Positions 12,985-36,132 of a DNA stretch of 36,666 bases are shown in pieces (positions within the stretch are counted from its first letter, which is position 1; each line of letters opens with the position of its first letter). Below the pieces are notes generated by a model. It searched no databases and was not told the DNA's origin. It worked only from the letters and a program-made list of their open reading frames with translations. The stretch lies in the sequence record SRR20825010_4262. One strand, 5' to 3'. The translations under genes were made by a program, and so were the position numbers.

Positions 12985-13082
12985 CGTATTCACAATCCAA
13001 ATCAAGCTTTTTAGTTGTTGGGCCTTACCGGTTTATTTTTTGTCACGCTTGTTTTTCTACATAGAAAAAGATACTTTTCATA

Positions 13083-13122
13083 AAAAGTGGGGAAAAGTGA
13101 GTAAAAGTGGTGAAGTGTGGGA
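13083..13122 (+). promoter_or_regulatory. MraZ-binding direct repeats (four, 10-nt period)
   Basis: AAAAGTGGGG AAAAGTGAGT AAAAGTGGTG AAGTGTGGGA directly upstream of mraZ, matching the known GTGG-N6 MraZ operator layout. Confidence 0.85.
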
Positions 13123-13130
13123 AAAAATCT

Positions 13131-17010: not shown

Positions 17011-18474
17011 ATGTCTGCATTAAAAGACATATTGTACAAAGTGGCTTTGCAATCAGTATCTGGCGATACTGCTGTGGAGGTGTCTGCATTGGCTTTTGAC
17101 TCTAGAAAAGTGGGAGCGAGGACGGCCTTTATTGCTACGCGTGGTACCCAAGCCGATGGTCATGATTTTATTGAGCAGGCCATTGAAAAAGGTGCCGTAG
17201 CCATTATTTGCGAACAACTTCCAGAAACCCTAAATACTTCCATTACCTATATTCAAGTGAAAGACAGTAGTGAGGCTTTGGGTATCATGGCCTCTAACTT
17301 CTTCGGGAATCCTAGTGCGAAATTAAAATTGGTGGGTGTTACAGGTACCAATGGAAAAACAACTTGTGTTAGCTTGTTATTCCAACTGTTCAAGCAGCTG
17401 GGTTATAATGTAGGCTTACTTTCTACCGTAATCAATAAAGTCAATGATGAGGTAATTGTAGCTACACACACCACGCCCGATGCCATCCAAATGAATGAGT
17501 TGATGGCGAAAATGGTAGCTAAGGGTTGTTCTCATTGTTTTATGGAAGTTAGTTCTCATGCCTTGGTGCAACACCGTGTTTCGGGACTTACCTTTCAAGG
17601 AGCGATTTTTACTAACCTGTCCCACGATCATTTAGATTATCACAAGACTTTCGATGAGTACATCAAAGCAAAAAAAATGTTGTTTGATGGACTTCCATCC
17701 TCGTCTTTTGCTTTGACTAATATAGACGATAAAAGAGGAGCCGTAATGCTCCAAAATACGAAAGCGTCTAAATATCGCTATGCACTAAAAACCATTGCTG
17801 ATTTCAAAGCGAAAATTCTTTCCAACACCCTTCAAGGTCTAGAATTGGACATTGAGAGCCATAATGTTTGGTTCAAGCTCATTGGTGATTTCAATGCCTA
17901 TAACCTGATGGCGGTTTATGGTGCAGCAGTTTTATTAGAAGAAGAGCCAGCCGAAGTGCTTCAAGCGCTATCGGATTTGAACCCAGCGCCAGGTCGTTTC
18001 GAGCAAGTGCTGACCGATACGGGAATTACTGCTATTGTAGATTATGCTCATACGCCAGATGCATTGGAGAATGTGCTTTCTACCATCAAAGTTTTCCGTA
18101 GTGGAAATGAGAAAGTGATTACGGTGGTAGGCTGTGGTGGGAATAGAGACACCACAAAAAGACCAGAAATGGCGAAGATTGCTTGTGAGCTAAGTGATAA
18201 GGTGGTGTTGACTTCAGATAACCCGCGATTTGAAGAGCCAATGGCAATTATTGAAGATATGCAAAAAGGCGTGAGCTCGAGTAATTATAGAAAAACACTG
18301 GTCATGGCAGATAGAAGAGAAGCGATTAAAACAGCTTGTTCTATGGCCGAACCCAATGATATTATCCTAGTGGCGGGAAAGGGTCACGAAACCTATCAAG
18401 ATGTAAAAGGAGTGAAATCCGATTTCGATGATAGAAAAGTATTGAAAGAAATGTTAAACCTAATTCATAAATGA
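17011..18474 (+). CDS. murE: UDP-MurNAc-L-Ala-D-Glu:meso-DAP ligase
   Basis: GVTGTNGKTT, MEVSSH, DHLDYH, DYAHTPD, SDNPR (DAP specificity), AGKGHE. Confidence 0.98.
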   Translation: MSALKDILYKVALQSVSGDTAVEVSALAFDSRKVGARTAFIATRGTQADGHDFIEQAIEKGAVAIICEQLPETLNTSITYIQVKDSSEALGIMASNFFGNPSAKLKLVGVTGTNGKTTCVSLLFQLFKQLGYNVGLLSTVINKVNDEVIVATHTTPDAIQMNELMAKMVAKGCSHCFMEVSSHALVQHRVSGLTFQGAIFTNLSHDHLDYHKTFDEYIKAKKMLFDGLPSSSFALTNIDDKRGAVMLQNTKASKYRYALKTIADFKAKILSNTLQGLELDIESHNVWFKLIGDFNAYNLMAVYGAAVLLEEEPAEVLQALSDLNPAPGRFEQVLTDTGITAIVDYAHTPDALENVLSTIKVFRSGNEKVITVVGCGGNRDTTKRPEMAKIACELSDKVVLTSDNPRFEEPMAIIEDMQKGVSSSNYRKTLVMADRREAIKTACSMAEPNDIILVAGKGHETYQDVKGVKSDFDDRKVLKEMLNLIHK

Positions 18475-18544
18475 AATGTGATATATGATATTAGAATTTA
18501 GAAACTCAGTTTTCTAAATTCTAATATCTAAAATCTAACCTCTA
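18471..18544. repeat. Inverted heptamer-repeat hairpin (5+5 units) between murE and mraY
   Basis: ATGAAAT GTGATAT ATGATAT TAGAATT TAGAAAC tcag TTTTCTA AATTCTA ATATCTA AAATCTA ACCTCTA; perfect 18-bp IR 18487-18504/18511-18528. Confidence 0.9.
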
Positions 18545-18550
18545 AAAAAG

Positions 18551-19765
18551 ATGCTGTACTACCTATTCAATTATTTAGATAGAGAATTTGACTTGGTTGG
18601 CGCTGGAGTGTTTCAGTACATCTCTTTCCGTGCAGGTATGGCTGTGCTTTTGTCACTGTTAATCACCATTACTTTCGGTGAGAAGTTGATCAACATGCTT
18701 CGTAACAAACAGGTGGGTGAAAGCATTAGGGATTTAGGTTTGGAAGGTCAAATGGCTAAAAAGGGTACGCCTACCATGGGTGGACTTATCATTATTGCCG
18801 CCATTGTTATTCCAACTTTGCTTTTCGCGAAGCTCGAAAATATTTATGTTATTCTTTTGTTAATCACCACCCTAGGTTTGGGGGCTATTGGTTTTTTGGA
18901 TGATTATATCAAGGTTTTTAAGAAGAATAAAGAAGGACTGGCTGGTAAATTTAAAGTAGTTGGTCAGGTAGGAATAGGTCTCTTGGTAGGGGCCGTACTC
19001 TATTTTAATGATGATGTGGTGGTTAGAGAATTCAATCCAACTCCACAGGGGCAAGTTATTTCAGTGACAGAAGGGGCCAATTATGTGGACAGTAAATCGA
19101 CTACCACTACCATACCTTTTGTGAAGGACAATGAGCTGGATTATGATGGATTCAATCCAACAGATAACGAATGGGTTACTGCTGCTATTTACATTTTAGT
19201 CGTAATTTTCTTTGTTACGGCCATATCAAATGGGGCCAATATTACGGATGGAATTGACGGATTGGCTGCGGGAACATCTGCCATCATTGGGTTAACACTG
19301 GCAATTTTCGCTTACATATCGGGTAATGCAATTTTCTCTGATTACCTGAATGTTATGTTCATTCCAAACTCTGGAGAGCTCGTGATTTTCTGTACTGCCT
19401 TTGTGGGGGCTTGTGTAGGCTTTTTATGGTATAACTCTTATCCAGCCCAAGTCTTTATGGGTGATACGGGCAGTCTGTCACTAGGTGGTATCATCGCTGT
19501 ATTGGCTTTGGTGCTCAGAAAGGAACTTTTAATTCCAGTGTTGTGCGGAATCTTTGTGATCGAAAACCTATCTGTAATCATTCAGGTGAGTTACTTCAAA
19601 TACACCAGAAAGAAATACGGTGAAGGAAGAAGGGTGTTCTTAATGTCGCCTTTGCATCACCACTATCAGAAAAAAGAGATGCCAGAAGCCAAGATTGTAA
19701 CGAGGTTTTGGATTGTGGGAATTTTGCTGGCAATTATAACATTGGCAACGCTTAAGTTGCGATAA
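18551..19765 (+). CDS. mraY: Phospho-N-acetylmuramoyl-pentapeptide transferase
   Basis: [41 protein letters not shown]. Confidence 0.98.
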
Positions 19766-19768
19766 CGA

Positions 19769-19817
19769 AGAATGTTTGATTTACGAAGTTTAATGTAAGA
19801 GTTAGAAAGAGCACATT
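19769..19817. repeat. Left heptamer arm flanking the four-helix-bundle gene
   Basis: AATGTTT GATTTAC GAAGTTT AATGTAA GAGTTAG; 19778-19802 matches the reverse complement of 20178-20202 at 21/25 positions. Confidence 0.75.
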
Positions 19818-20219
19818 TTGGATAGACAAGACATCATAATAAGACACAGAAAGTTTGTACTAGATATAGTGCATGTCTGTGATGCTTTGCCGAAAAGCTA
19901 TTCGAAGGGTGTTTTCGCTAGGCAGCTTATTAGAGCGTCAAGCTCTGTAGGAGCTAACTATAGGGCTGCCGGTAGAGGTAAATCGACTGCGGATTTCATC
20001 AATAAACTCAAGATTGTTGAAGAAGAAGCAGATGAATGCAACTACTTTTTAGACCTTATTTTGGCCCTAAATAGGAGTAATACCTCCGAGGTTCAAAGAC
20101 TAATAAAAGAGTCGGAAGAAATTTTGGCAATGACGGTTGCGGCTATTAAGACTGCTAGAAGTAATGTTGCTTCTAGTACTCGTACATCAAACATAGTAAA
20201 TCGTAATTCTAAACAATGA
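19818..20219 (+). CDS. Four helix bundle protein (23S rRNA IVS protein / TIGR02436-like), TTG start
   Basis: QLIRASSSVGANYRAA.RGKS.ADFI.KLKIVEEEADE..Y.L motif, 133 aa, inserted between mraY and murD. Confidence 0.92.
   Translation: MDRQDIIIRHRKFVLDIVHVCDALPKSYSKGVFARQLIRASSSVGANYRAAGRGKSTADFINKLKIVEEEADECNYFLDLILALNRSNTSEVQRLIKESEEILAMTVAAIKTARSNVASSTRTSNIVNRNSKQ
20163..20210. repeat. Right heptamer arm, inside the 3' end of the four-helix-bundle ORF
   Basis: AGTACTC GTACATC AAACATA GTAAATC GTAATTC; complementary to the left arm; encodes the S/N/T-rich tail. Confidence 0.75.
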
Positions 20220-21544
20220 AACGGAGACTAACCATACTAGGCGCAGGCGAAAGCGGAACAGGAGCAGCATTGCTTGGAAAGGCAAAAGGCTATGATGTGT
20301 TCGTGTCTGATATGGGGCAGATCAAAGTGCAGTATGTTCAGGAATTAGAAGCCAATGGTATTGAGTTCGAAAGCGGAAAGCATTCAGAAGAACGAGTTTT
20401 AGAAAGTGACTTGGTGATCAAGAGCCCTGGTATTCCAGAGTCAGCCCCTTTAATAAAAAAACTTAGAGCCAAGGGCAATTTAATTATTGGCGAAATCGAA
20501 TTCGCAGCTCGGTATACGACCGCAAAGCTCATTGGCATTACCGGAACCAATGGAAAAACGACAACCACGCTTTTGACCTATCATCTGTTGAAAGAGGGGG
20601 GATTTAATGTAGGCCTTGGTGGTAATGTGGGTAAAAGTTTTGCACGTCAGGTAGTGGAAGACAAGCACCACTGGTATGTGCTAGAATTGAGCAGTTTCCA
20701 GTTAGATGACTGCTACGAATTGAAATTGAACATTGCAGTTGTATTAAATATCACACCAGATCATTTGGATAGATATGATTACAATTTCGAAAAATACATT
20801 GCATCGAAGATGCGCATATTTAACCTGGTACATCTGGGTGGTCATGGCATTTATTGGAACGATGATCACCAAATTGGGAAGAACATTTCAAAAGCCGCTC
20901 GCGGCCTTAAAGTTCATCCTTATTCGCTTGGAGGAGACGCCTCCGAGATAACAAATGATAGGTTGTTTTTTACCCCTTTAAACGTTGAGGTATCCGCCCC
21001 CAGAGCAGATATCTCAATAAAGGGGCAGCATAATATGCTGAACGCCAAAGCCGCAGGTTATGCTGTTAGCTTAGCAGGCGTGAGTGAGGGGGCCATTATT
21101 CGTGGTTTTAAAAACTTCAAAAATGCCCCGCACCGATTAGAGCCTGTAAGGGAAATTAATGGAGCGAAATACATCAATGATTCAAAAGCCACGAATGTCG
21201 ATTCTGTCTATTATGCTTTGGATGCGGTTGATGCACCTATTGTTTGGATTGCAGGTGGGGTAGATAAAGGAAATGATTACAGCCTGATTCAGGCTTTGGT
21301 ACAGAATAAAGTAAAAGGCTTGATTTGCCTAGGGAAGGATAATTCGAAACTCTATACGGCTTTTGAAAATTTAGTTCCTAGCATTCAAGCGACTGATGAT
21401 TTGATAAAAGCGATTAGAATGGCCAAAGATTTGGCAGCACCAGGCGATACAGTTTTGTTATCTCCGGCTTGTGCAAGTTTCGATTTGTTCAAGAACTATG
21501 AAGATCGCGGAAATCAGTTCAGAGAGGCAGTTTTAGCGATTTAA
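20216..21544 (+). CDS. murD: UDP-MurNAc-L-Ala:D-Glu ligase
   Basis: LGAGESG, SPGIP, GITGTNGKTT, ELSSFQL, PDHLDRY, NDSKATN, SPACASFD. Confidence 0.98.
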   Translation: MKRRLTILGAGESGTGAALLGKAKGYDVFVSDMGQIKVQYVQELEANGIEFESGKHSEERVLESDLVIKSPGIPESAPLIKKLRAKGNLIIGEIEFAARYTTAKLIGITGTNGKTTTTLLTYHLLKEGGFNVGLGGNVGKSFARQVVEDKHHWYVLELSSFQLDDCYELKLNIAVVLNITPDHLDRYDYNFEKYIASKMRIFNLVHLGGHGIYWNDDHQIGKNISKAARGLKVHPYSLGGDASEITNDRLFFTPLNVEVSAPRADISIKGQHNMLNAKAAGYAVSLAGVSEGAIIRGFKNFKNAPHRLEPVREINGAKYINDSKATNVDSVYYALDAVDAPIVWIAGGVDKGNDYSLIQALVQNKVKGLICLGKDNSKLYTAFENLVPSIQATDDLIKAIRMAKDLAAPGDTVLLSPACASFDLFKNYEDRGNQFREAVLAI

Positions 21545-21566
21545 AACAGAAAATTAAGAAAATACA

Positions 21567-22730
21567 ATGTTGATAAAATTGAAAGCATGGGCCGATAAAA
21601 ACCTTCAGGGCGATCCCGTCATCTGGGCGGTGGTGCTATGCCTTTCGCTCATTAGTATTTTGGTCGTATACAGTGCCACGGGCTCATTAGCCTACAAGCA
21701 AATGGGTGGCAATACAGAGTATTACCTTATTCGTCATACCGTTATGGTGGGTTTAGCCATGGTGGTGATGTGGGTTGCGCATAAAATCGATTACCGTTAT
21801 TATTCTAAAATTACCCGATACGCCCTTTTCGTTTCTGTGCCCTTATTACTTTATGCATGGCAAGCAGGCTCAACTGTAAATGAAGCTTCTCGCTGGATTG
21901 AATTGCCTTTTATTGGTTTACAATTTCAACCTTCAGATTTAGCCAAAATGGCTTTAATTGCTGGTTTGGCCAGTATGTTGGCCAAAAGGCAACAAAATAT
22001 TGCCAATATCAAAGAATCCTTGATCCCGATGTTGGCATGGTGTGGGGCTATCTGTGGCCTTATTGCAATGACCAATATTTCGACTGCAATTTTACTCTTT
22101 CTTACCTGCATGCTGCTTTTATTTATCGGTCGAGTACCGCCAAAATATTTGGCCATGTTAATGGTTGTTGGTGCTTTCGTGGGCGTGCTAGCCATGAGCT
22201 TTGGTCAGCGTGGTGGAACCGCAATTAGTAGGGTGACCGACTTCATAAGCCAAGAAGAAGTGCCATATCAGGCACAACAGTCGTATATCGCTATTGCTAC
22301 AGGCGGAGTAATTGGGAAAGGGCCAGGTAAAAGTGATCAAAGGAATTTCCTTCCATATCCTTACTCAGATTTTGTCTATGCCATCATTATCGAAGAATAT
22401 GGAATGATTGGAGGAGTGTTCGTTTTGTTCCTGTACTTAGTGCTACTCTATAGAGGAATGCGAGTAATGGCCAATAGTGACAGGGCATTTGGAGGGCTGC
22501 TTTCGGCAGGACTCAGTTTTGCCATTGTAATTCAAGCCTTGGTCAATATTGGCGTTGTGGTGGGGTTAGGCCCTGTAACAGGTCAAACATTACCATTGAT
22601 TAGCATGGGGGGAACCTCGCTACTATTCACAGGACTTTCCTTGGGAATTATCCTAAGTGTGAGCCGTGGAGAACAAGAAGTTTTTTCACCAATAACTGGT
22701 GATTTAAGAAATTCAGCTAGAACAGCGTAA
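21567..22730 (+). CDS. ftsW: SEDS peptidoglycan polymerase FtsW
   Basis: RWI...FQPSD, GKGPG.S, SDFVYAIIIEEYG, PVTGQTLPLISMGGTS. Confidence 0.96.
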   Translation: MLIKLKAWADKNLQGDPVIWAVVLCLSLISILVVYSATGSLAYKQMGGNTEYYLIRHTVMVGLAMVVMWVAHKIDYRYYSKITRYALFVSVPLLLYAWQAGSTVNEASRWIELPFIGLQFQPSDLAKMALIAGLASMLAKRQQNIANIKESLIPMLAWCGAICGLIAMTNISTAILLFLTCMLLLFIGRVPPKYLAMLMVVGAFVGVLAMSFGQRGGTAISRVTDFISQEEVPYQAQQSYIAIATGGVIGKGPGKSDQRNFLPYPYSDFVYAIIIEEYGMIGGVFVLFLYLVLLYRGMRVMANSDRAFGGLLSAGLSFAIVIQALVNIGVVVGLGPVTGQTLPLISMGGTSLLFTGLSLGIILSVSRGEQEVFSPITGDLRNSARTA

Positions 22731-22732
22731 TT

Positions 22733-23842
22733 ATAGAAAAGCAACAACCATATCGAATCATTATCAGCGGAGGCGGCACAGGCGGGCATATTTACCCAGC
22801 CATTGCCATTGCCAATGCTTTTAAAGCGCGTTTCGATGATGCTGAAATTCTTTTTGTGGGTGCCGAAGGAAAAATGGAAATGCAGAAAGTGCCAGAAGCT
22901 GGCTATAAAATCATCGGTCTTTGGATCAGTGGTTTGCAGCGCAGGCTCACTTTCGACAACCTACTTTTCCCGGTAAAGCTGGTAAATAGCCTGAGCAAAA
23001 GTGCAGGCATCATCAGAAGATTTAGACCACATGCGGTGGTTGGTGTTGGGGGTTATGCAAGTGGACCTTTGTTAAGGGTGGCTTTGCGAAAGGAGGTTCC
23101 AGCGGTAATTCAAGAGCAGAATTCATATGCAGGCCTCACCAATAAATTATTGGCAAAGAAGGTGCAAAAAATATGCGTGGCTTACCCTGACATGGAGAAG
23201 TTCTTTCCAGCTGAAAAAATTGCTTTCACTGGAAATCCTGTAAGAAAAGACATAGTCGATTTAGCAGGAAAGAAAGAAGCTGCTAAGAAGCATTTTGGCT
23301 TGAGCGATTCACCAGTATTGTTGATTTTAGGAGGAAGCCTCGGTGCTCGTACCCTGAACGATAGCATGGTGTTGGGTTTAGAGAAATTGAAGGCTGAAGG
23401 CATTCAAGTGATTTGGCAGTGTGGTAAGTTTTATCATACTGAAATGAAAGAGAAGCTTGAGGCTTCTGGAGATGCCAAAAATATTTTTCTTTTCGAGTTT
23501 TTGAAGGAAATGGATTTGGCTTATGCCGCAGCGGATGTAGTGATTTCACGAGCAGGCGCTTTGTCTGTTTCGGAACTCAGTATTGCTGCAAAGCCTACGA
23601 TTTTTGTGCCTTCACCTAATGTGGCCGAAGATCATCAAACCAAAAATGCGAAAGCAATGGTTGATAATGATGCTGCTATTTTGGTGAAGGATGTGGAAGC
23701 CAGAGAGAAATTAATAGACGAGGCTATTGCGCTGATCAACGATCAGAAAAAGCAATATAAGCTGAGTGAAAAAATAAAGGCATTGGCGAAACCCAATGCT
23801 GCAGATGAAATAGTTGACGAGGTTTTAAAATTGATAGCGTGA
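22733..23842 (+). CDS. murG: Undecaprenyl-PP-MurNAc-pentapeptide GlcNAc transferase; non-canonical start (ATA 22733 or ATT 22730)
   Basis: The in-frame sequence upstream of the track's GTG reads IEKQQPYRIIISGGGTGGHIYPAIAIA, the essential N-terminal G-loop. Also GGYASGP, EQNS, TGNPVR, GGSLGA, SRAGA, HQTKNA. Confidence 0.95.
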   Translation: MEKQQPYRIIISGGGTGGHIYPAIAIANAFKARFDDAEILFVGAEGKMEMQKVPEAGYKIIGLWISGLQRRLTFDNLLFPVKLVNSLSKSAGIIRRFRPHAVVGVGGYASGPLLRVALRKEVPAVIQEQNSYAGLTNKLLAKKVQKICVAYPDMEKFFPAEKIAFTGNPVRKDIVDLAGKKEAAKKHFGLSDSPVLLILGGSLGARTLNDSMVLGLEKLKAEGIQVIWQCGKFYHTEMKEKLEASGDAKNIFLFEFLKEMDLAYAAADVVISRAGALSVSELSIAAKPTIFVPSPNVAEDHQTKNAKAMVDNDAAILVKDVEAREKLIDEAIALINDQKKQYKLSEKIKALAKPNAADEIVDEVLKLIA

Positions 23843-25215
23843 AGCTGAGAGACGTGCATAACGTATATTTTCTTGGGATCGGAGGGATTGGAATGAGTGC
23901 TTTGGCCAGGTGGTTTAAGCATAATGGCAAAGCTGTGTCGGGTTACGATAAAACACCAACTCCTTTAACACGTCAGTTGGAAAATGAAGGTATTGCTGTG
24001 CATTTCGAGGATGATCCGGAAAGAATCAGTGATAACATAAAAAGCGAAAAAGAGGATGCTTTGGTGATTTACACTCCAGCAATTCCAAAAGACAACAAAG
24101 AATATGCTTGGCTGAAGGTGGAAGGTTTCAACATTATGAAACGCTCGCAAGTGTTGGGTTTGATTACCGAAAGCATGATTAGCGTGGCCGTGGCTGGAAC
24201 ACATGGTAAAACCACCACCAGTTCAATGATCGTCCATTTGATGAAAACGGCAGGTATTGATTGCACTGGGTTTTTGGGAGGAATTGCGACCAATTATGGA
24301 ACAAACATGGTGATGAATGAGGAAACGAATTCTATTGCTGTAATTGAAGCCGATGAATTTGATCGCTCGTTCTTAACGCTTAGACCCGATGCGGCTGTGG
24401 TTACCTCTATCGATGCAGACCATTTAGATATTTACGGTGATAAAGACGCTTTGAAAGAGTCGTTCGCGCTGTTTGTAAGTAAAATAGAAAAGAAAGGTAA
24501 ACTCTTCGCGAAGCGAGGAGTGGGAAGCCAGATTTTAGGAGATGTAACTCGAATTCATCACTCGAGTTATGCCTTGGACTCGGCTGATATTATAGCTGAG
24601 AACCTAAGAATTGAGGAGGCGGCTTTCGTTTTCGATTATAAAACAAGCAAGAAAACCATATCAGGTATTCGGTTGAATGTACCGGGTTTTCACAATGTAG
24701 AAAATGCCTTGGCGGCCATTTCTGTTACCAAATACTTTGGTGCTGACGATGACTCTATCCGTGAAGGAATAAGTACCTATAAAGGGGTGAAAAGGCGCTT
24801 TGAGTACATTATTCAGACTGAAGGCCTGGTGTATATCGATGATTATGCACATCATCCGGTAGAGATCGAATCATTGTTGAAGTCGGTGCGAGCGCTTTAT
24901 CCGAATAAAAGAATTACTGCTGTTTTTCAACCGCATCTGTTTAGTCGCACAAGAGATTTCGCTCCAGAATTTTCAGAGAGTTTGGGCTTGGCAGACGAAG
25001 TGATATTGTTGGATATTTATCCTGCGAGAGAGCAGCCGATTGAAGGAATTACTTCAGAAATGTTGCTCAAAAAAGTGACTGCTGAAAGGAAAATGGTTTG
25101 TGCTAAAGAAGCTTTGCTTGAACAGATTAAAGCTTGGCAGCCAGAGGTGCTTTTAACCATTGGCGCAGGTGACATTGATAAGTTTGTAGAACCTTTAAAA
25201 ACTGAATTGTCATGA
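23839..25215 (+). CDS. murC: UDP-MurNAc:L-Ala ligase (GTG start)
   Basis: GIGGIGMSALA, AGTHGKTTTSS, EADEFDRSF, DDYAHHP, FQPHLFSRT. Confidence 0.98.
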   Translation: MKLRDVHNVYFLGIGGIGMSALARWFKHNGKAVSGYDKTPTPLTRQLENEGIAVHFEDDPERISDNIKSEKEDALVIYTPAIPKDNKEYAWLKVEGFNIMKRSQVLGLITESMISVAVAGTHGKTTTSSMIVHLMKTAGIDCTGFLGGIATNYGTNMVMNEETNSIAVIEADEFDRSFLTLRPDAAVVTSIDADHLDIYGDKDALKESFALFVSKIEKKGKLFAKRGVGSQILGDVTRIHHSSYALDSADIIAENLRIEEAAFVFDYKTSKKTISGIRLNVPGFHNVENALAAISVTKYFGADDDSIREGISTYKGVKRRFEYIIQTEGLVYIDDYAHHPVEIESLLKSVRALYPNKRITAVFQPHLFSRTRDFAPEFSESLGLADEVILLDIYPAREQPIEGITSEMLLKKVTAERKMVCAKEALLEQIKAWQPEVLLTIGAGDIDKFVEPLKTELS

Positions 25216-25979
25216 GAGCAAAAGAAACAATTTGGAGGGTTGTAGGGATTACGGGGGCGTCTGCCCTTCTAGTATCCATGATTAGTTTTATCGATAAAAG
25301 GGAAGTAGGCTACAGAATTAACGACATCGAAGTGGACATAGAAAATACCTATGAAAACTTCTTTATCGATGAAGAGGATGTAATGTCGCTCATCTTCGAA
25401 AATAAAGGAGATACCATATTGGGTGACGCTTACGGACGAGTGAGTTTGAAGGAAATTGAGCAAAGAGTGGAGTCCCACAGTTTCGTGAAGGATGCGCAAG
25501 TATTTAGAGACTTAAATGGTCATTTGGTAGTGCGGGCCATTCAGAATAAGCCAATGGCAAGGATTGTTGCCGATAACGGAAAACAAGCGTATTTAGGTGA
25601 GGAGGGTGATATTTTACCGGTTTCTAATAAATATACAGCAAGAGTTATTGTGCTTTCAGGTAAATATATGGATGAATTGACTTCTCGAAAAAGTATTGAA
25701 GGAAACGAGTACGACCACAAACTTTATAATTTGATTGAGTACATCAACAAGGATAAGTTTTGGAGCATGCAGATCGCTCAGTTGATAGTGAGCAAAAATG
25801 GAAAAGTAGTGATGATTCCACAAGTAGGGGATCAAAAACTTGAATTTGGGTTCGCAGAAAACTTTAAGTCAAAATTCAAACGGTTAGAGATTTTCTTCAA
25901 AGAAATTATGCCAACAAAAGGTTGGAATACATACAGTAGGGTAAATGTAGAATACAAAGATCAACTCATTTGTGAGTGA
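25212..25979 (+). CDS. ftsQ: Cell division protein FtsQ/DivIB
   Basis: N-terminal TM helix, POTRA segment, C-terminal GWNTYSRVNVEYKDQLIC, located between murC and ftsA. Confidence 0.9.
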   Translation: MRAKETIWRVVGITGASALLVSMISFIDKREVGYRINDIEVDIENTYENFFIDEEDVMSLIFENKGDTILGDAYGRVSLKEIEQRVESHSFVKDAQVFRDLNGHLVVRAIQNKPMARIVADNGKQAYLGEEGDILPVSNKYTARVIVLSGKYMDELTSRKSIEGNEYDHKLYNLIEYINKDKFWSMQIAQLIVSKNGKVVMIPQVGDQKLEFGFAENFKSKFKRLEIFFKEIMPTKGWNTYSRVNVEYKDQLICE

Positions 25980-26069
25980 TCAAAACAAAGGAATTTATAG
26001 TGGAAATGAATGTAGAAGTGACAGGTTTACAATTATAGAAGCTCTGAAATATAAAATACAAACAACGCC

Positions 26070-27377
26070 ATGCAAGAAGATAAAATAGTTGTCGGACTAG
26101 ACATTGGAACCACGAAGATCTGTGTGATTGTGGGGACAAAAAATGAGTATGGAAAACTCGAAGTATTAGGAATGGGTAAAGCCGTCTCTGATGGAGTGAT
26201 CCGTGGTATAGTAACCAATATTGATAAAACCGTTGTTGCAATCGAAAAGGCAATTGCCGAAGCAAGTGAGCAATCAGGCATCGAAATCAATGTGGTAAAT
26301 GTGGGCATTGCAGGCCAGCACATTAGAAGTTCAGTTCATCATGGTAGCATCACCCGTGAAGTGGTTGAAGATGAAATTACGGTTACGGACCTAACTCGTT
26401 TATCAAACGATATTCATAAGATCGTAATGCCTCCCGGCTGTGAAATTATTCACGTAATGCCGCAAGATTACATTGTGGATTACGAAGAAGGAATTAAAGA
26501 TCCGGTTGGTATGTCGGGTGTTAAGCTTGAAGCAGATTTCCATGTGATCACTGCCCAAACCAATGCCATTAGAAATATCAATAAGTGTGTGCGAAGAGCT
26601 GGTTTAGAAATCGAGAATTTGATTTTGGAGCCATTGGCATCCAGCATGTCAGTTTTGAGTGACGAAGAAAAAGAGGCTGGCGTTTGCCTTGTAGATATTG
26701 GTGGTGGTACTACCGACATCGCGATCTTCCACGATAATATTATCCGACACACCGCAGTAATTCCTTTTGGTGGCAATATCATCACCTCCGACATTAAGGA
26801 AGGCTGTAAAGTAATGCAGAACCAAGCGGAGCTGTTGAAAACGAAATTCGGAAAAGCCATTGCAGAAGAGGCCAATCCAAATGAAATCGTTTCGATTCCT
26901 GGCTTACGGAATAGACCACCAAAGGAAATTTCGATCCGTAACCTCGCCAATATTATTGAGGCCAGAATGGAAGAAATCATTGAGTTGGTGCATGCAGAAA
27001 TTATCACTTCAGGTTATGCAAGCAAGTTGGCTGGTGGAATTGTAATTACAGGGGGCGGTTCGCAACTGGGTTATGTAAAACAGTTGTTCGAATACATGAC
27101 TGGTATGGATGCCAGAATTGGTTATCCTAACGAACACCTTGGTAAGAGCAAAGTAGAGGCCATTAAAAGCCCCATGTATGCAACTACTGTTGGTTTAGTG
27201 CTTTCGGGTTTCAGAGCGATTGATGAAAGAGAGAACCGCTATATGGAAAATCAAGTTGCCTCAGGAAAGAAGACAATGAAGAGCGCAAAGAAAAGCTCAG
27301 ACTTCTTCAAAGGTCTCATCGATAAGACAAAAGGTTTGTTGATGGATGATTTTCAAGATAAAGGCGGAGAGTATTAG
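26070..27377 (+). CDS. ftsA: Cell division protein FtsA
   Basis: GLDIGTTKI, DPVGMSG, DIGGGTTD, ITGGGSQL, C-terminal amphipathic helix. Confidence 0.98.
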   Translation: MQEDKIVVGLDIGTTKICVIVGTKNEYGKLEVLGMGKAVSDGVIRGIVTNIDKTVVAIEKAIAEASEQSGIEINVVNVGIAGQHIRSSVHHGSITREVVEDEITVTDLTRLSNDIHKIVMPPGCEIIHVMPQDYIVDYEEGIKDPVGMSGVKLEADFHVITAQTNAIRNINKCVRRAGLEIENLILEPLASSMSVLSDEEKEAGVCLVDIGGGTTDIAIFHDNIIRHTAVIPFGGNIITSDIKEGCKVMQNQAELLKTKFGKAIAEEANPNEIVSIPGLRNRPPKEISIRNLANIIEARMEEIIELVHAEIITSGYASKLAGGIVITGGGSQLGYVKQLFEYMTGMDARIGYPNEHLGKSKVEAIKSPMYATTVGLVLSGFRAIDERENRYMENQVASGKKTMKSAKKSSDFFKGLIDKTKGLLMDDFQDKGGEY

Positions 27378-27398
27378 AAACTAAATAAAAGTGAATTC

Positions 27399-27447
27399 AG
27401 TGCTGTGATCACGCATCATTCAACTTGATGAACATGATGACAGCATT
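27399..27447 (+). other. Extended imperfect RNA hairpin in the ftsA-ftsZ intergenic region
   Basis: AGTGCTGT/ACAGCATT outer stem, ATCA/TGAT middle stem, CATCA/TGATG inner stem; no U-tract. Confidence 0.55.
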
Positions 27448-27481
27448 AAAAATAAGATAAAATAACAAATGCCTGCTTTTG

Positions 27482-27509
27482 TCTTCGGTCTTCGGACTTC
27501 GGACTTCGG
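27482..27509. repeat. Heptamer tandem repeat (T/A)CTTCGG x4 upstream of ftsZ
   Basis: TCTTCGG TCTTCGG ACTTCGG ACTTCGG, then partial GCTT. Confidence 0.9.
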
Positions 27510-27526
27510 GCTTAAACATAATAATC

Positions 27527-29095
27527 ATGGCAGAATCTTATATGTTCGAACTTCCAAAGCATCACAAATCGATCATCAAGGTGATTGGAGTTGGTGGCGG
27601 AGGAAGCAACGCAGTAAACCACATGTATAATCAGGGTATTAAGGATGTGGAGTTTATCGTTTGTAACACTGATGCGCAGGCATTGAAAAGCAGTCCTATT
27701 CCAAATAGGTTACAAATAGGCATTGGCCTTACTGAAGGTCTTGGTGCTGGTGCCAGCCCAGAAGTGGGAAAAAATGCGGCTTTAGAAAGCAAAGAAGACA
27801 TCCGTCAAATGCTCGGTGACGATACCAAAATGGTATTCATTACCGCAGGAATGGGAGGAGGTACCGGGACTGGTGCCGCTCCGGTAATTGCCAAAATAGC
27901 ACGCGACATGGACCTACTTACGGTAGGGATTGTTACGGCTCCTTTTGGTTTTGAAGGAAGAAAGAAAATGAATGCAGCCAATGAAGGTATTGCTGCATTA
28001 AAGGAGAATTGCGATACGGTTTTGGTGATCCTCAACGACAAGCTGAGAGAAATTCACGGTAACCTGCCGATCAGTAAGGCATTTGCCGAAGCAGATAATA
28101 TTTTAACCACAGCTGCTAAAGGAATTGCCGAAATCATTACCGTACCTGGTTATGTAAATGTCGATTTCATGGACGTTCAAACCGTAATGAAGGGCGCTGG
28201 TGCGGCTGTTATGGGTTCTGCTTCTGCCGAAGGCGAAGGAAGAGCACTAAGAGCTGCCGAAATGGCCATCTCTTCTCCGCTATTGAACAGTCAAGATATT
28301 TTAGGGGCTAAGAAAATCTTACTCTCTATTATCTCTGGTGAAGACGCTGAGCTTCAAATGGACGAGCTGACTGAAATTACTGAATACATCCAAGACAAAG
28401 CAGGTGATGATGCTGAAGTGATCTTCGGTCACGGAATTGATATAGAGCATGGACAAAGCATTAGCGTAACCGTAATTGCAACGGGCTTCGAGACTCCAAT
28501 GGTAGAAGCTAGACCAAATGCGTCTAAGAAAACGGTCATCGATTTAGAGAGTAATCAGCCAATCGAACGTAATGTTGAGAAGCCGTCTTTTATTGAGAAA
28601 CCAACACAATCGTCACTGTTCAACGCAGGTTTTGAAAAGCCGGAACCACGTCAGGGGATTGATGAAGTGGAGAATAAGGATGACAGTGATGATGACAATA
28701 TTACTTCAGGTTATACTTTCTTGTCTAGATTGGCACAGAAATATGATATCGAAGAAGTTGGGCCAGAAGCCAGTGACGATCCAGAAGTTCGTTTACGTAA
28801 TGAACGTGTTGAGCTAGATCACGAAGAGCAACGTTACAAGGATTTCTTGGAAATGAAGCGCAACAAACTTCAACAACAAGCGAGACTAAGAGAAGAAAAG
28901 TTACGTAGCTCTGGAAATTATCAGATCAAGAATGATGATATCAAAGAGAAACTTGAAGTTCCCGCTTATCAGCGTAGACAAGTAAGGTTAAACGATGCAC
29001 CGCCTTCATCTGAAAGCAATGTGTCGCGCTATAACCTTAATGATGACGATGAAATAATGGGCAACAATAAGTTTCTACATGACAATGTAGATTGA
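27527..29095 (+). CDS. ftsZ: Cell division protein FtsZ with long acidic C-terminal linker
   Basis: GVGGGGSNAV, NTDAQAL, GMGGGTGTG, NVDFMD, Bacteroidota C-terminus VPAY.R...N.FLHDNVD; ATG 27527 preferred over TTG 27479. Confidence 0.98.
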   Translation: MAESYMFELPKHHKSIIKVIGVGGGGSNAVNHMYNQGIKDVEFIVCNTDAQALKSSPIPNRLQIGIGLTEGLGAGASPEVGKNAALESKEDIRQMLGDDTKMVFITAGMGGGTGTGAAPVIAKIARDMDLLTVGIVTAPFGFEGRKKMNAANEGIAALKENCDTVLVILNDKLREIHGNLPISKAFAEADNILTTAAKGIAEIITVPGYVNVDFMDVQTVMKGAGAAVMGSASAEGEGRALRAAEMAISSPLLNSQDILGAKKILLSIISGEDAELQMDELTEITEYIQDKAGDDAEVIFGHGIDIEHGQSISVTVIATGFETPMVEARPNASKKTVIDLESNQPIERNVEKPSFIEKPTQSSLFNAGFEKPEPRQGIDEVENKDDSDDDNITSGYTFLSRLAQKYDIEEVGPEASDDPEVRLRNERVELDHEEQRYKDFLEMKRNKLQQQARLREEKLRSSGNYQIKNDDIKEKLEVPAYQRRQVRLNDAPPSSESNVSRYNLNDDDEIMGNNKFLHDNVD

Positions 29096-35054: not shown

Positions 35055-36132
35055 TTATTGTTGCATTAAATACGCTTTTATGTAATCGTCTAAGTCACCG
35101 TCTAACACGTTTTGAACGTCAGTTCGTTCATAACCTGTACGGGCGTCTTTAATCAATTTATAAGGATGCAGGACGTAGTTTCGAATTTGAGAACCAAAAT
35201 CTACGCGCATTTTTTCACCTTCCACAATATCTCTGGCGGCATTACGCTTGTCGAGCTCAATTTGATATAATCGAGACTTTAACATAGAAAGCGCTTTCTC
35301 CTTATTTCCGAGTTGAGACCTGCCCTCTGTATTTTCAATGGTAATGCCAGTAGGAGCGTGTTTTAGACGCACACCCGTTTCTACCTTGTTTACGTTCTGT
35401 CCACCTGCACCCCCTGAACGGAAAGTATCCCAACTGATATCTCCAGGTTTGATTTCTATCTCTATAGTATCATCTACCAGCGGGTAAGCAAATACGGATG
35501 CAAACGAAGTGTGCCTTCTTCCTCCTGAATCGAAAGGAGAAATACGCACCAAACGATGCACTCCTGATTCAGCCTTTAATTGGCCAAAAGCAAACTCGCC
35601 TTCAAACTCTAAGGTGCAAGATTTACAGCCTGCTACATCGCCCGCTTGATAATGGATTTGCTTCACATTATAGCCTTGGCGTTCGCCCCACATGATGTAC
35701 ATTCGCATCAGTATTTCGGCCCAATCGTTACTTTCTGTTCCGCCTGCGCCAGGGTTGATTTCAATCACGGCACTCAGTTGGTCTTCTTCACCACTGAGCA
35801 TCTTCTTGAATTCAATTTCTTCTAAAATTTCGAGTGCTTTTGTGTATTCTTTTTCTACCTCTTCAACGGACACTTCACCCATTTCGAGGAACTCGTTTAG
35901 GGTGTCAACATCTTCTAAAGCGGTTAAAACGTTTTCAAAGCTGGTAGTCCAGACTTTCTTTAAACGTATTTGTTTTAATACTTTTTCGGCCTCTTTTGGG
36001 TCGTTCCAAAATTCTGGTTGGGCCGTCACCAGCTCTTCTTCTTCTACTTCACTTTTCTTGACATCGTAGTCAAAGATACCCCCTCAAAGCCGCTACTCTG
36101 GCTTTTAAATCTTTCAGCTGATCTGAAGTCAT
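35055..36132 (-). CDS. prfB: Peptide chain release factor 2 with programmed +1 frameshift
   Basis: ORF1 [20 protein letters not shown] ends AGG GGG TAT CTT TGA C, and the +1 frame continues DYDVKK... into the SPF and GGQ motifs. Confidence 0.97.
36069..36084 (-). other. prfB frameshift cassette (internal SD AGGGGG + CTT TGA C)
   Basis: Canonical RF2 autoregulatory site; TGA at 36072-36070. Confidence 0.95.

Follow-up and report, generated by a model that had tools for sequence, protein, structure and literature searches.

By the family description, 23S rRNA that has been cut at an intervening sequence (IVS) is not known to be religated. Genes accompanied by their own repeats are known from the REP-RAYT systems, in which the gene is flanked by its own repeats, gene-less repeats occur elsewhere, the flanks form hairpins and the protein is an HUH nuclease, and TRAP is a ring regulator whose repeat number matches its subunit number and which binds repeats in RNA. 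The IVS of Coxiella burnetii (helix 45, S23p), as described in PMC4990558, is closed by a terminal stem of 28 bp, and GACAGAT heptamers stand in tandem ahead of the start codon. Their number varies between strains, decay of the ORF is seen, and the first repeat is the place of cutting by RNase III, after which the excised RNA undergoes degradation. Ssn nucleases are encoded by a small single-domain gene flanked by its own repeats (SRM/NTS), each flank being a self-contained hairpin (PMC11893778). The Avd protein of diversity-generating retroelements is an S23-like pentameric helical barrel (PMC6182149 and bioRxiv 10.1101/2023.10.23.563531), and in the latter source it binds an RNA stem-loop with all five protomers. 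Furthermore, intergenic heptamer repeats have been described with the units TAACTGA (PMC4679880) and GGGAATC (PMC4692102); the terms “four helix” and “intervening” are absent from the main texts of both papers, whose supplements may list such genes as neighbours, and PMC8700078 lists four-helix-bundle genes merely as strain-specific. In searches of openly available main texts, no paper was found that links the PF05635 family to heptamer arms at mRNA junctions, although database comments may mention the link.

The window analysed here is the whole stretch of 36,666 nt from sequence record SRR20825010_4262. Its host is a Roseivirga-like member of the Bacteroidota and the region concerned is the dcw cluster, in which a four-helix-bundle gene with heptamer arms separates mraY from murD. 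Among the matches listed for the cassette ORF, the nearest one with a species name is from Roseivirga ehrenbergii (94%). The features are as follows.

18487..18547, + strand: gene-less heptamer hairpin at the murE-mraY junction (fold z -6.2)
18551..19765, + strand: mraY, the upstream host gene (TIGR00445 above cut-off)
19769..19802, + strand: left arm, with the units TGTTTGA TTTACGA AGTTTAA TGTAAGA (paired core 19778-19802)
19818..20219, + strand: four-helix-bundle gene of 133 aa with a TTG start (profiles TIGR02436 / PF05635)
20147..20184, + strand: local hairpin where the coding core ends; it competes with the long stem at its inner end (fold z -3.1)
20178..20210, + strand: right arm, about five complementary heptamers (paired core 20178-20202)
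20216..21544, + strand: murD, the downstream host gene (TIGR01087 above cut-off)
27387..27513, + strand: remnant left by deletion of a second cassette at ftsA-ftsZ, aligning with the full cassette of genome G006

As originally predicted, the left arm begins with AGAAT at 19769, 3 nt past the end of the mraY stop codon (19765), and the right arm ends with ATTCT at 20210, 5 nt before the murD ATG (20216), which overlaps the TGA of the cassette ORF (ATGA). ACATT at 19813-19817 directly precedes the TTG at 19818, and the 52-nt spacer of the cassette differs at 2 positions from that of G003, a genome of the same genus. The cassette is not an assembly artefact, because contigs of two public runs (X1 and X2), one of which may be the source sample, span it intact. 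A joint in X1 that skips 19631-20746 was considered as an excision product and rejected; it has one side of only 33 nt and dissimilar flanks, and is read as the mraY-murD junction of another organism. The cassette lies at mraY-murD and not in helix 9 or 45 of 23S rRNA. Its sole ORF is the TIGR02436 gene, with no transposase of a known family beside it, and the predicted lack of a transposase or reverse transcriptase in the window agrees with the scan of 27 of its 37 ORFs, among which none was found and 7 were without match at 1e-8. A sigma-70 scan, whose model does not cover Bacteroidota promoters, gave 7 promoter-like sites against 5.8 expected, and the same scan found no terminator-like site at the cassette. 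Elsewhere in the window, AAAAGTGGGG-type 10-nt repeats stand before mraZ (13082-13126) and are presumably MraZ binding boxes, and the prfB ORF (35055-36029, - strand) starts at profile position 31, which we take to be expected from the usual programmed frameshift.

The reading to which we give about an even chance is that of a slow selfish cassette, the form that the ORF-bearing 23S IVS takes at mRNA junctions, whose protein would act on its own heptamers. It consists of about four heptamers (W-K-T-W-N-G-A), a four-helix-bundle gene of 120 aa and four or five complementary heptamers.

The arms of the present copy are complementary as claimed, the inverted repeat 19778-19802 / 20178-20202 matching at 21 of 25 positions, and a second register (19772-19786 / 20180-20194) matches at 14 of 15; both registers occur in the predicted fold. 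The arm duplex is calculated at -31.4 kcal/mol; dinucleotide shuffles average -16.8 (sd 3.2), and 0 of 1000 attain the real value. Among 1046 windows of the sequence, none pairs with the left arm better than the true right arm does. The 491-nt region around the cassette folds with a z of -4.6. By itself the left arm shows no folding beyond that of shuffles (z +0.8). A genuine 7-nt periodicity is present, weak in this copy (p 0.008 on the left and 0.04 on the right) and strong across the family. Some details of the predicted geometry had to be given up: the loop closed by the paired core is 375 nt rather than about 345 nt, and the pairing of ACATT with AATGT at the ends is missing from the predicted fold, because 20147-20184 makes a local hairpin there instead. 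The right arm is the ORF's own 3' end, as had been stated, in this lineage, but only through read-through, because the frame here runs about 20 codons into the arm; in the median family copy the stop codon comes 1 codon past the conserved core, and the read-through tail of the structural model has pLDDT values of 58 and 49 in its last two blocks.

The survey of other loci took the best 80 of at least 570 confirmed loci in genome contigs, 78 of which, with the window, had full flanks. In these 79 loci the identity at lag 7 is 0.41 upstream and 0.46 downstream, most other lags lying near 0.29. The duplex z is below -3 in 35 of the 79. The best 80 loci are mostly from Bacteroidota, with single cyanobacterial, Thermoflexales, Terriglobia, Verrucomicrobiota and Deltaproteobacteria records, and the non-Bacteroidota records have other heptamer units, altered on both sides together. 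In addition, every TIGR02436 match from 26/36 genus genomes was included, which gave 242 copies after removal of a duplicate (L001) and of matches with fewer than 90 profile positions; the arm test set comprised the 171 copies with both neighbours on the same strand and an upstream gap of 10-150 nt. G003 and the other genus genomes were used in place of the window genome's own paralogs, the flanks of which were expected to carry 7-periodic complementary arms. Watson-Crick arms scoring at least 10 are indeed present in 140 of the 171 copies, against 6/171 shuffled controls and 105/855 cross-site pairs.

The median paired length of the arms is 25.5 nt and the unit consensus is W-K-T-W-N-G-A, in which the last two positions are inflated by the choice of phase on GA. 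The left arm starts at a median of 2-4.5 nt past the upstream stop, and the paired right segment ends at a median of 13 nt before the next start (84 copies). Left arms have 4 units in 50 of 168 copies and 5 in 22, and right arms have 5 in 51 and 4 in 41, so that the idea of five heptamers fixed in each arm gives way to a commonest number of 4 on the left and 5 on the right, with a range of 1-12. In favour of pairing, the own arm pairs slightly better than same-site arms from other genomes (-1.2 kcal/mol, p 0.0025, 102 copies), an advantage that comes mainly from ftsA-ftsZ copies. Strong selection for an RNA helix is contradicted by the retention of Watson-Crick pairing in only 13 of 30 double changes and by the lack of a G·U excess given below. 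The complementarity of the arms arises mostly from both being built of one unit, and therefore a unit-reading protein or DNA template switching fits as well as an RNA stem. Arm similarity is 5.25 of 7 positions between copies at other sites and in other genomes whose proteins are at least 50% identical, 4.24 below 30% protein identity and 4.17 within one genome; the arm sequence follows the protein lineage.

The cassette protein is above cut-off in TIGR02436 (76.7 bits against 24) and PF05635 (62.3 against 33.8), and PF05635 is, of its kind, the only match above cut-off for the window protein; the family itself is very large, with at least 7934 hits among 8000 candidates scored. The predicted model has four helices (pLDDT 90.5), and in the structure comparison the first rank is taken by BT_0352 (2RLD, Z 15.5, rmsd 2.0, 108 aligned) and the second by XCC0516 (2GSC, Z 15.4, rmsd 2.4, 111 aligned), with five chains listed in each of the two entries; XCC0516 is termed a homopentamer in PMC4990558. 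The same comparison recognised no known catalytic fold. By site-weighted counts Q36, S43, N47 and E73 are conserved at 98-100% and R39 at 87% in all subfamilies. Since Q36, R39, S43 and N47 are spaced 3-4 residues apart on helix 2, the model suggests that they constitute a binding or catalytic face.

That the gene and its arms form a unit inserted at the junction was the central claim of the original prediction, and it agrees with the patchy occurrence of the cassette: at mraY-murD a copy is found in only 2 of the 36 genus genomes, G003 and G012. The other genomes comprise 30 with a closed junction lacking it, three whose contigs enter a TAACTGA array from both sides and G002, which is unresolved; 33 of the 36 have mraY-murD without the cassette. 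In 26 family-level relatives having both genes (27 loci examined), no profile-detectable copy lies at this junction, the gap is -4 to +8 nt in 20 and the two genes are joined by an ATGA overlap in 9, like murD with the cassette ORF here. The tight coupling of mraY and murD is thus ancestral, because of these short gaps and of the absence of a copy. The notion that the stem makes the insertion silent gains slight support, but the ATGA overlap couples murD to the cassette ORF. The TAACTGA arrays stand directly before murD in seven close relatives, with TAACGAA in an eighth (L100); assemblies break at these arrays, which have no complementary left arm (TAACTGA mraY-murD loci L093, L095-L099, L101 and L329, L331, L332). 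A palindromic repeat, CCCCCT...AGGGGG, is also found in other genus members at mraY-murD (L116, L120-L122) and murD-ftsW (L136), so that dcw junctions host several repeat families. L340 (mraY-murD of G115) is a 126-aa ORF with the look of a highly diverged four-helix bundle (hhalign 48%, E 2e-4); it has no clear arms and may be a copy that has aged or been domesticated.

Each of the 36 genus genomes has 2-12 family matches. Cassettes occur at murD-ftsW in 7 genus genomes, at ftsA-ftsZ in 11 copies and, as full cassettes, at murE-mraY in three family members (G075, G089 and G131). They follow a stop codon directly and are oriented like the genes of the host operon, and these operons serve cell wall, histidine, tryptophan, methionine, folate, Fe-S assembly, respiration and acyl-CoA catabolism, that is, no shared function. 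Thirteen upstream neighbours called on the minus strand are probably mis-calls, the chosen ORF being 620-700 nt away. The single recurring exception to the in-operon placement is a Flavobacterium site (L011, L017, L018, L022, L024, L025, L028, L033, L037, L055, L065 and L019) at which the next gene is convergent to the cassette in 12 copies, so that the right arm is not followed by a start there.

The gene and arms are gained and lost as one unit, and the window holds traces of other such units. The hairpin before mraY has a perfect 18-bp stem (18487-18528) followed by about three more heptamers; the stem is 18/18 in the window and has 3-6 mismatches in five relatives, which from the sequences looks like template-switch correction of a quasi-palindrome, and the hairpin probably descends from such a cassette, as its relic or its daughter. 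What is retained at ftsA-ftsZ is the last approximately 78 nt of a four-helix-bundle gene (to 27465) and a right arm, the CTTCGGA array at 27483-27513, without the left arm and most of the gene. This is probably the relic of a second cassette, and loss occurs through imprecise deletion, because the gene end and the right arm survive. The mechanically called ftsZ ORF from TTG 27479 takes in this arm in frame, and ATG 27527 is the likely start. Empty alleles in relatives contain other repeats.

The copy tree (FastTree, 117 columns and 242 rows, many open forks) follows the site and not the genome. The nearest neighbour is from the same site in 141 of 155 cases and from the same genome in none (0/155), copies of one site share a median protein identity of 66% and copies of one genome 28%, and the tree needs 40 changes by site against 149 by genome. 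Among 492 same-genome pairs the highest identity is 63% and the median 28%, near-identical dispersed copies being absent. The exceptions to grouping by site are mostly neighbouring junctions within one operon, and related copies are found at neighbouring operon junctions: the three mraY-murD copies of Roseivirga form a group (support 90) together with the seven from murD-ftsW, in Flavobacteriaceae mraY-murD copies group with ftsW-murG copies, and copies of the his and trp junctions interleave. Moreover, some junctions are occupied by unrelated cassette lineages in different taxa, such as the separate lineages at mraY-murD and likewise at lepA-folD.

Compared with G003, the window copy has dN 0.028, dS 0.66 and dN/dS about 0.04, and 13 dcw host genes have dS 0.52-0.98 in the same comparison; by these values the window copy is as old as the host genes and under strong purifying selection. 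Vertical conservation at this site had been named as the finding that would speak against a mobile unit, and the result is divided: the gene matches its neighbours in age, yet conservation at the site is lacking. In 35 site-matched pairs, which are not independent of each other, the median dN/dS is 0.059; intact copies are under purifying selection and others are decaying. A recent transfer between the window lineage and G003 was rejected, as dS equals that of the host genes and the flanks are no closer. The two genomes are not each other's closest relatives, and their clade includes eight more genomes, all with the TAACTGA-type array; therefore either one allele type has moved between lineages or both have been kept polymorphic. 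When G003 is compared with its sister genome G006, 6 of 45 nt differ in the final 15 codons of mraY against 0-2 of 45 in the five preceding bins, a spike of divergence located exactly where the junction alleles of the two genomes differ. It fits allele exchange as far as nucleotide differences can indicate it, in a single case of 45 nt. Searches for a carrier gave no confirmed relative in viral contigs, 2 weak matches in phage records and 27 in plasmids, and identified none.

If the cassette is selfish, it would be expressed from the host transcript, and its protein, a pentamer in solved relatives, would recognise the own heptamers via the Q36-R39-S43-N47 face and E73, be it as RNA, as single-stranded DNA or as inverted sites on double-stranded DNA. 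Binding might then speed the copying of the cassette, either to an empty allele at its own junction or to the neighbouring one, and the chemistry of copying would be left to host recombination. The function would be needed only for spreading, and therefore purifying selection and repeated decay would both be explained; the combination of purifying selection, frequent breakage and patchy presence is what a selfish cycle of gain, decay and loss predicts. The cassette would be tolerated because no reading frame is interrupted, and here its ORF would relay ribosomes to murD via ATGA. Cutting of the imperfect arm stem by RNase III is not required, and we estimate it as possible, on balance doubtful. 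Several points stand against the selfish cassette. The highest identity within a genome is 63%, so no recent jump is seen. The dS of 0.66, within the host range, may equally be given by inheritance and repeated loss. Purifying selection as strong as that on MurD is easier to explain by a benefit to the host, unless empty alleles keep being reinvaded, and local hops are possible without a mobility protein, by tandem duplication and loss. The protein's lack of a known catalytic fold counts against it too, as do the missing transposase and reverse transcriptase among the 27 of 37 ORFs scanned, the small number of tree columns with many open forks, and the restriction of the mraY divergence spike to one case.

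A bolder form of the selfish reading, which we put forward tentatively, sees PF05635 proteins as what mobilises small elements of a class not yet described, which has no known transposase fold. The pentamer would grip four or five heptamers per end, and the cassette would be copied to spots behind stop codons, with a preference for the same transcription unit. If this is true, the 23S IVSs would be copies that landed in rRNA, a retroelement would have recruited one relative as Avd, and cassette relics would make up many of the intergenic heptamer arrays seen in Bacteroidota, Cyanobacteria and Xanthomonas.

Less probable, yet the best of the other explanations, is a passenger with a role in the host, in which the gene encodes a conditionally useful nucleic-acid-binding protein (an RNA chaperone, a stress protein or an anti-phage protein) and not a mobility factor. 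The heptamer arrays would be a mutable spacer by which ordinary recombination moves or deletes the gene, and complementarity would be kept by DNA template switching. The vertical age, the strong purifying selection, the presence of at least 2 family matches in all 36 genomes and the perfect 18/18 murE-mraY hairpin, as if from template-switch correction, agree with this. So do two findings on the arms: an excess of G·U was sought and found absent among arm mismatches (132 G·U against 111 A·C, p 0.2) and among homologous changes (50 against 45, p 0.68), and the real order of units gains little pairing over shuffled order (13.0 against 12.3; better in 67 of 104 copies). However, the passenger leaves unexplained why nearly every family copy has arms, why the arm type tracks the protein lineage across sites and genomes, and why a host should maintain copies at dozens of junctions that have nothing in common, sister species differing in the subset they carry. 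PADLOC gave no model matching the window protein, and 1 of 66 family members matched weakly.

Regulation in cis after the manner of TRAP, which we regard as improbable, would have the pentamer bind the mRNA heptamers and open or close the stem, and so tune murD translation or dcw processing. It is in keeping with the modal unit numbers of 4 and 5, with arms beginning a median of 2-4.5 nt past the upstream stop, with the predicted pairing of left and right arm over about -15 to -7 of murD and with the binding of an RNA stem-loop by the five protomers of the related pentamer Avd. The gene-less hairpin also has 3 pairs changed on both sides among 6 related sequences, with a covariation score reached by 14 of 500 shuffles, a figure that is not a probability. 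As to occlusion, the predicted ensemble, in which the left arm pairs with the right arm, covers only about -15 to -7 of murD; the five bases before the ATG and its first two are 93-99% unpaired, so that the proposal of a stem hiding the murD start does not agree with the fold, and the cassette's own start is not hidden by the arm either, since its TTG pairs with the cassette coding sequence. The predicted openness of the murD ATG argues against a regulator, and so do the 33 genus genomes that do without the cassette at mraY-murD, the lack of a regulatory logic common to the host operons, the absent wobble bias and the 12 copies that face a convergent gene.

Addiction in cis, by which the arms would burden an essential mRNA with a block or RNase III site to which the cassette protein is the antidote, is very unlikely: it would explain purifying selection without movement, and some remnants keep the right arm without the left, as at the window's ftsA-ftsZ, but both arms are kept at a score of at least 10 in 8 of the 13 broken or partial copies examined, and two-armed gene-less hairpins persist at murE-mraY in 12 of 37 genomes, the window included, and also at ftsA-ftsZ, although paralogs might supply the protein in trans. 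A true mRNA intron, with the loop excised and mraY and murD rejoined, is hardly credible even though only a few nucleotides separate the arms from the mraY stop on one side and the murD start on the other, as no Rfam family matches 18300-28000, the relatives' empty alleles are not precise excision products and the known rRNA IVS is cut by RNase III and its excised RNA degraded (PMC4990558).

The description of gene and repeats as one unit offers a candidate ligand for the PF05635 protein, whose family has solved structures without known function, and an origin for intergenic heptamer repeats, which have so far been without a described cause. It also suggests that the ORF-bearing rRNA IVS is perhaps a special case of an element living mostly at operon junctions, and if the protein drives movement, this would be a new kind of mobile element.

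Among the described systems, insertion sequences and MITEs differ from the cassette, which has no transposase of a known family and no near-identical copies in the same genome. The TAACTGA and GGGAATC repeats are like it in being heptamer arrays before start codons or convergent inverted pairs, and were described without a link to this gene family. On the likeness of the family to Avd the comparisons diverge: phrog_3206, which is annotated as Avd, matches 30 of 66 family members, but not the window protein, the family profile gave no hit to the solved Avd sequence, and the fold scores to Avd (Z 12.2-12.6, rmsd 2.3-2.4) are level with those of unrelated bundles. Kinship of the family to Avd is plausible. 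Unlike Avd, the cassette gene has mraY and murD as neighbours and no reverse transcriptase among the 27 of 37 window ORFs scanned, and RVT_1 matches are found in only 9 of the 36 genus genomes.

The Ssn nucleases with their own repeats may serve as the closest working analogy, since they share cognate flanking repeats, gene-less repeats elsewhere and lineage-specific pairs of repeat and protein (PMC11893778); there, however, the protein is a GIY-YIG nuclease, whereas here the flanks are the halves of one tandem-heptamer stem and the protein is an all-helical bundle. The tie to the 23S intervening sequences is borne out by the Coxiella IVS, which has the same gene family and heptamers before the start codon. 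In the ORF-bearing 23S IVS of Coxiella, and also of Leptospira, the S23p gene likewise lies in the loop of a terminal stem (28 bp there and about 25 here), and the cassette shares with them the terminal inverted repeats around the S23p ORF. The cassette differs from the 23S IVS in lying between protein genes in mRNA, at dozens of junction types and with 2-12 matches per genome, and from the Coxiella IVS in its less perfect stem and in an ORF under strong purifying selection. It therefore stands outside the 23S IVS class by position, yet is built like one; this architecture was already known in rRNA.
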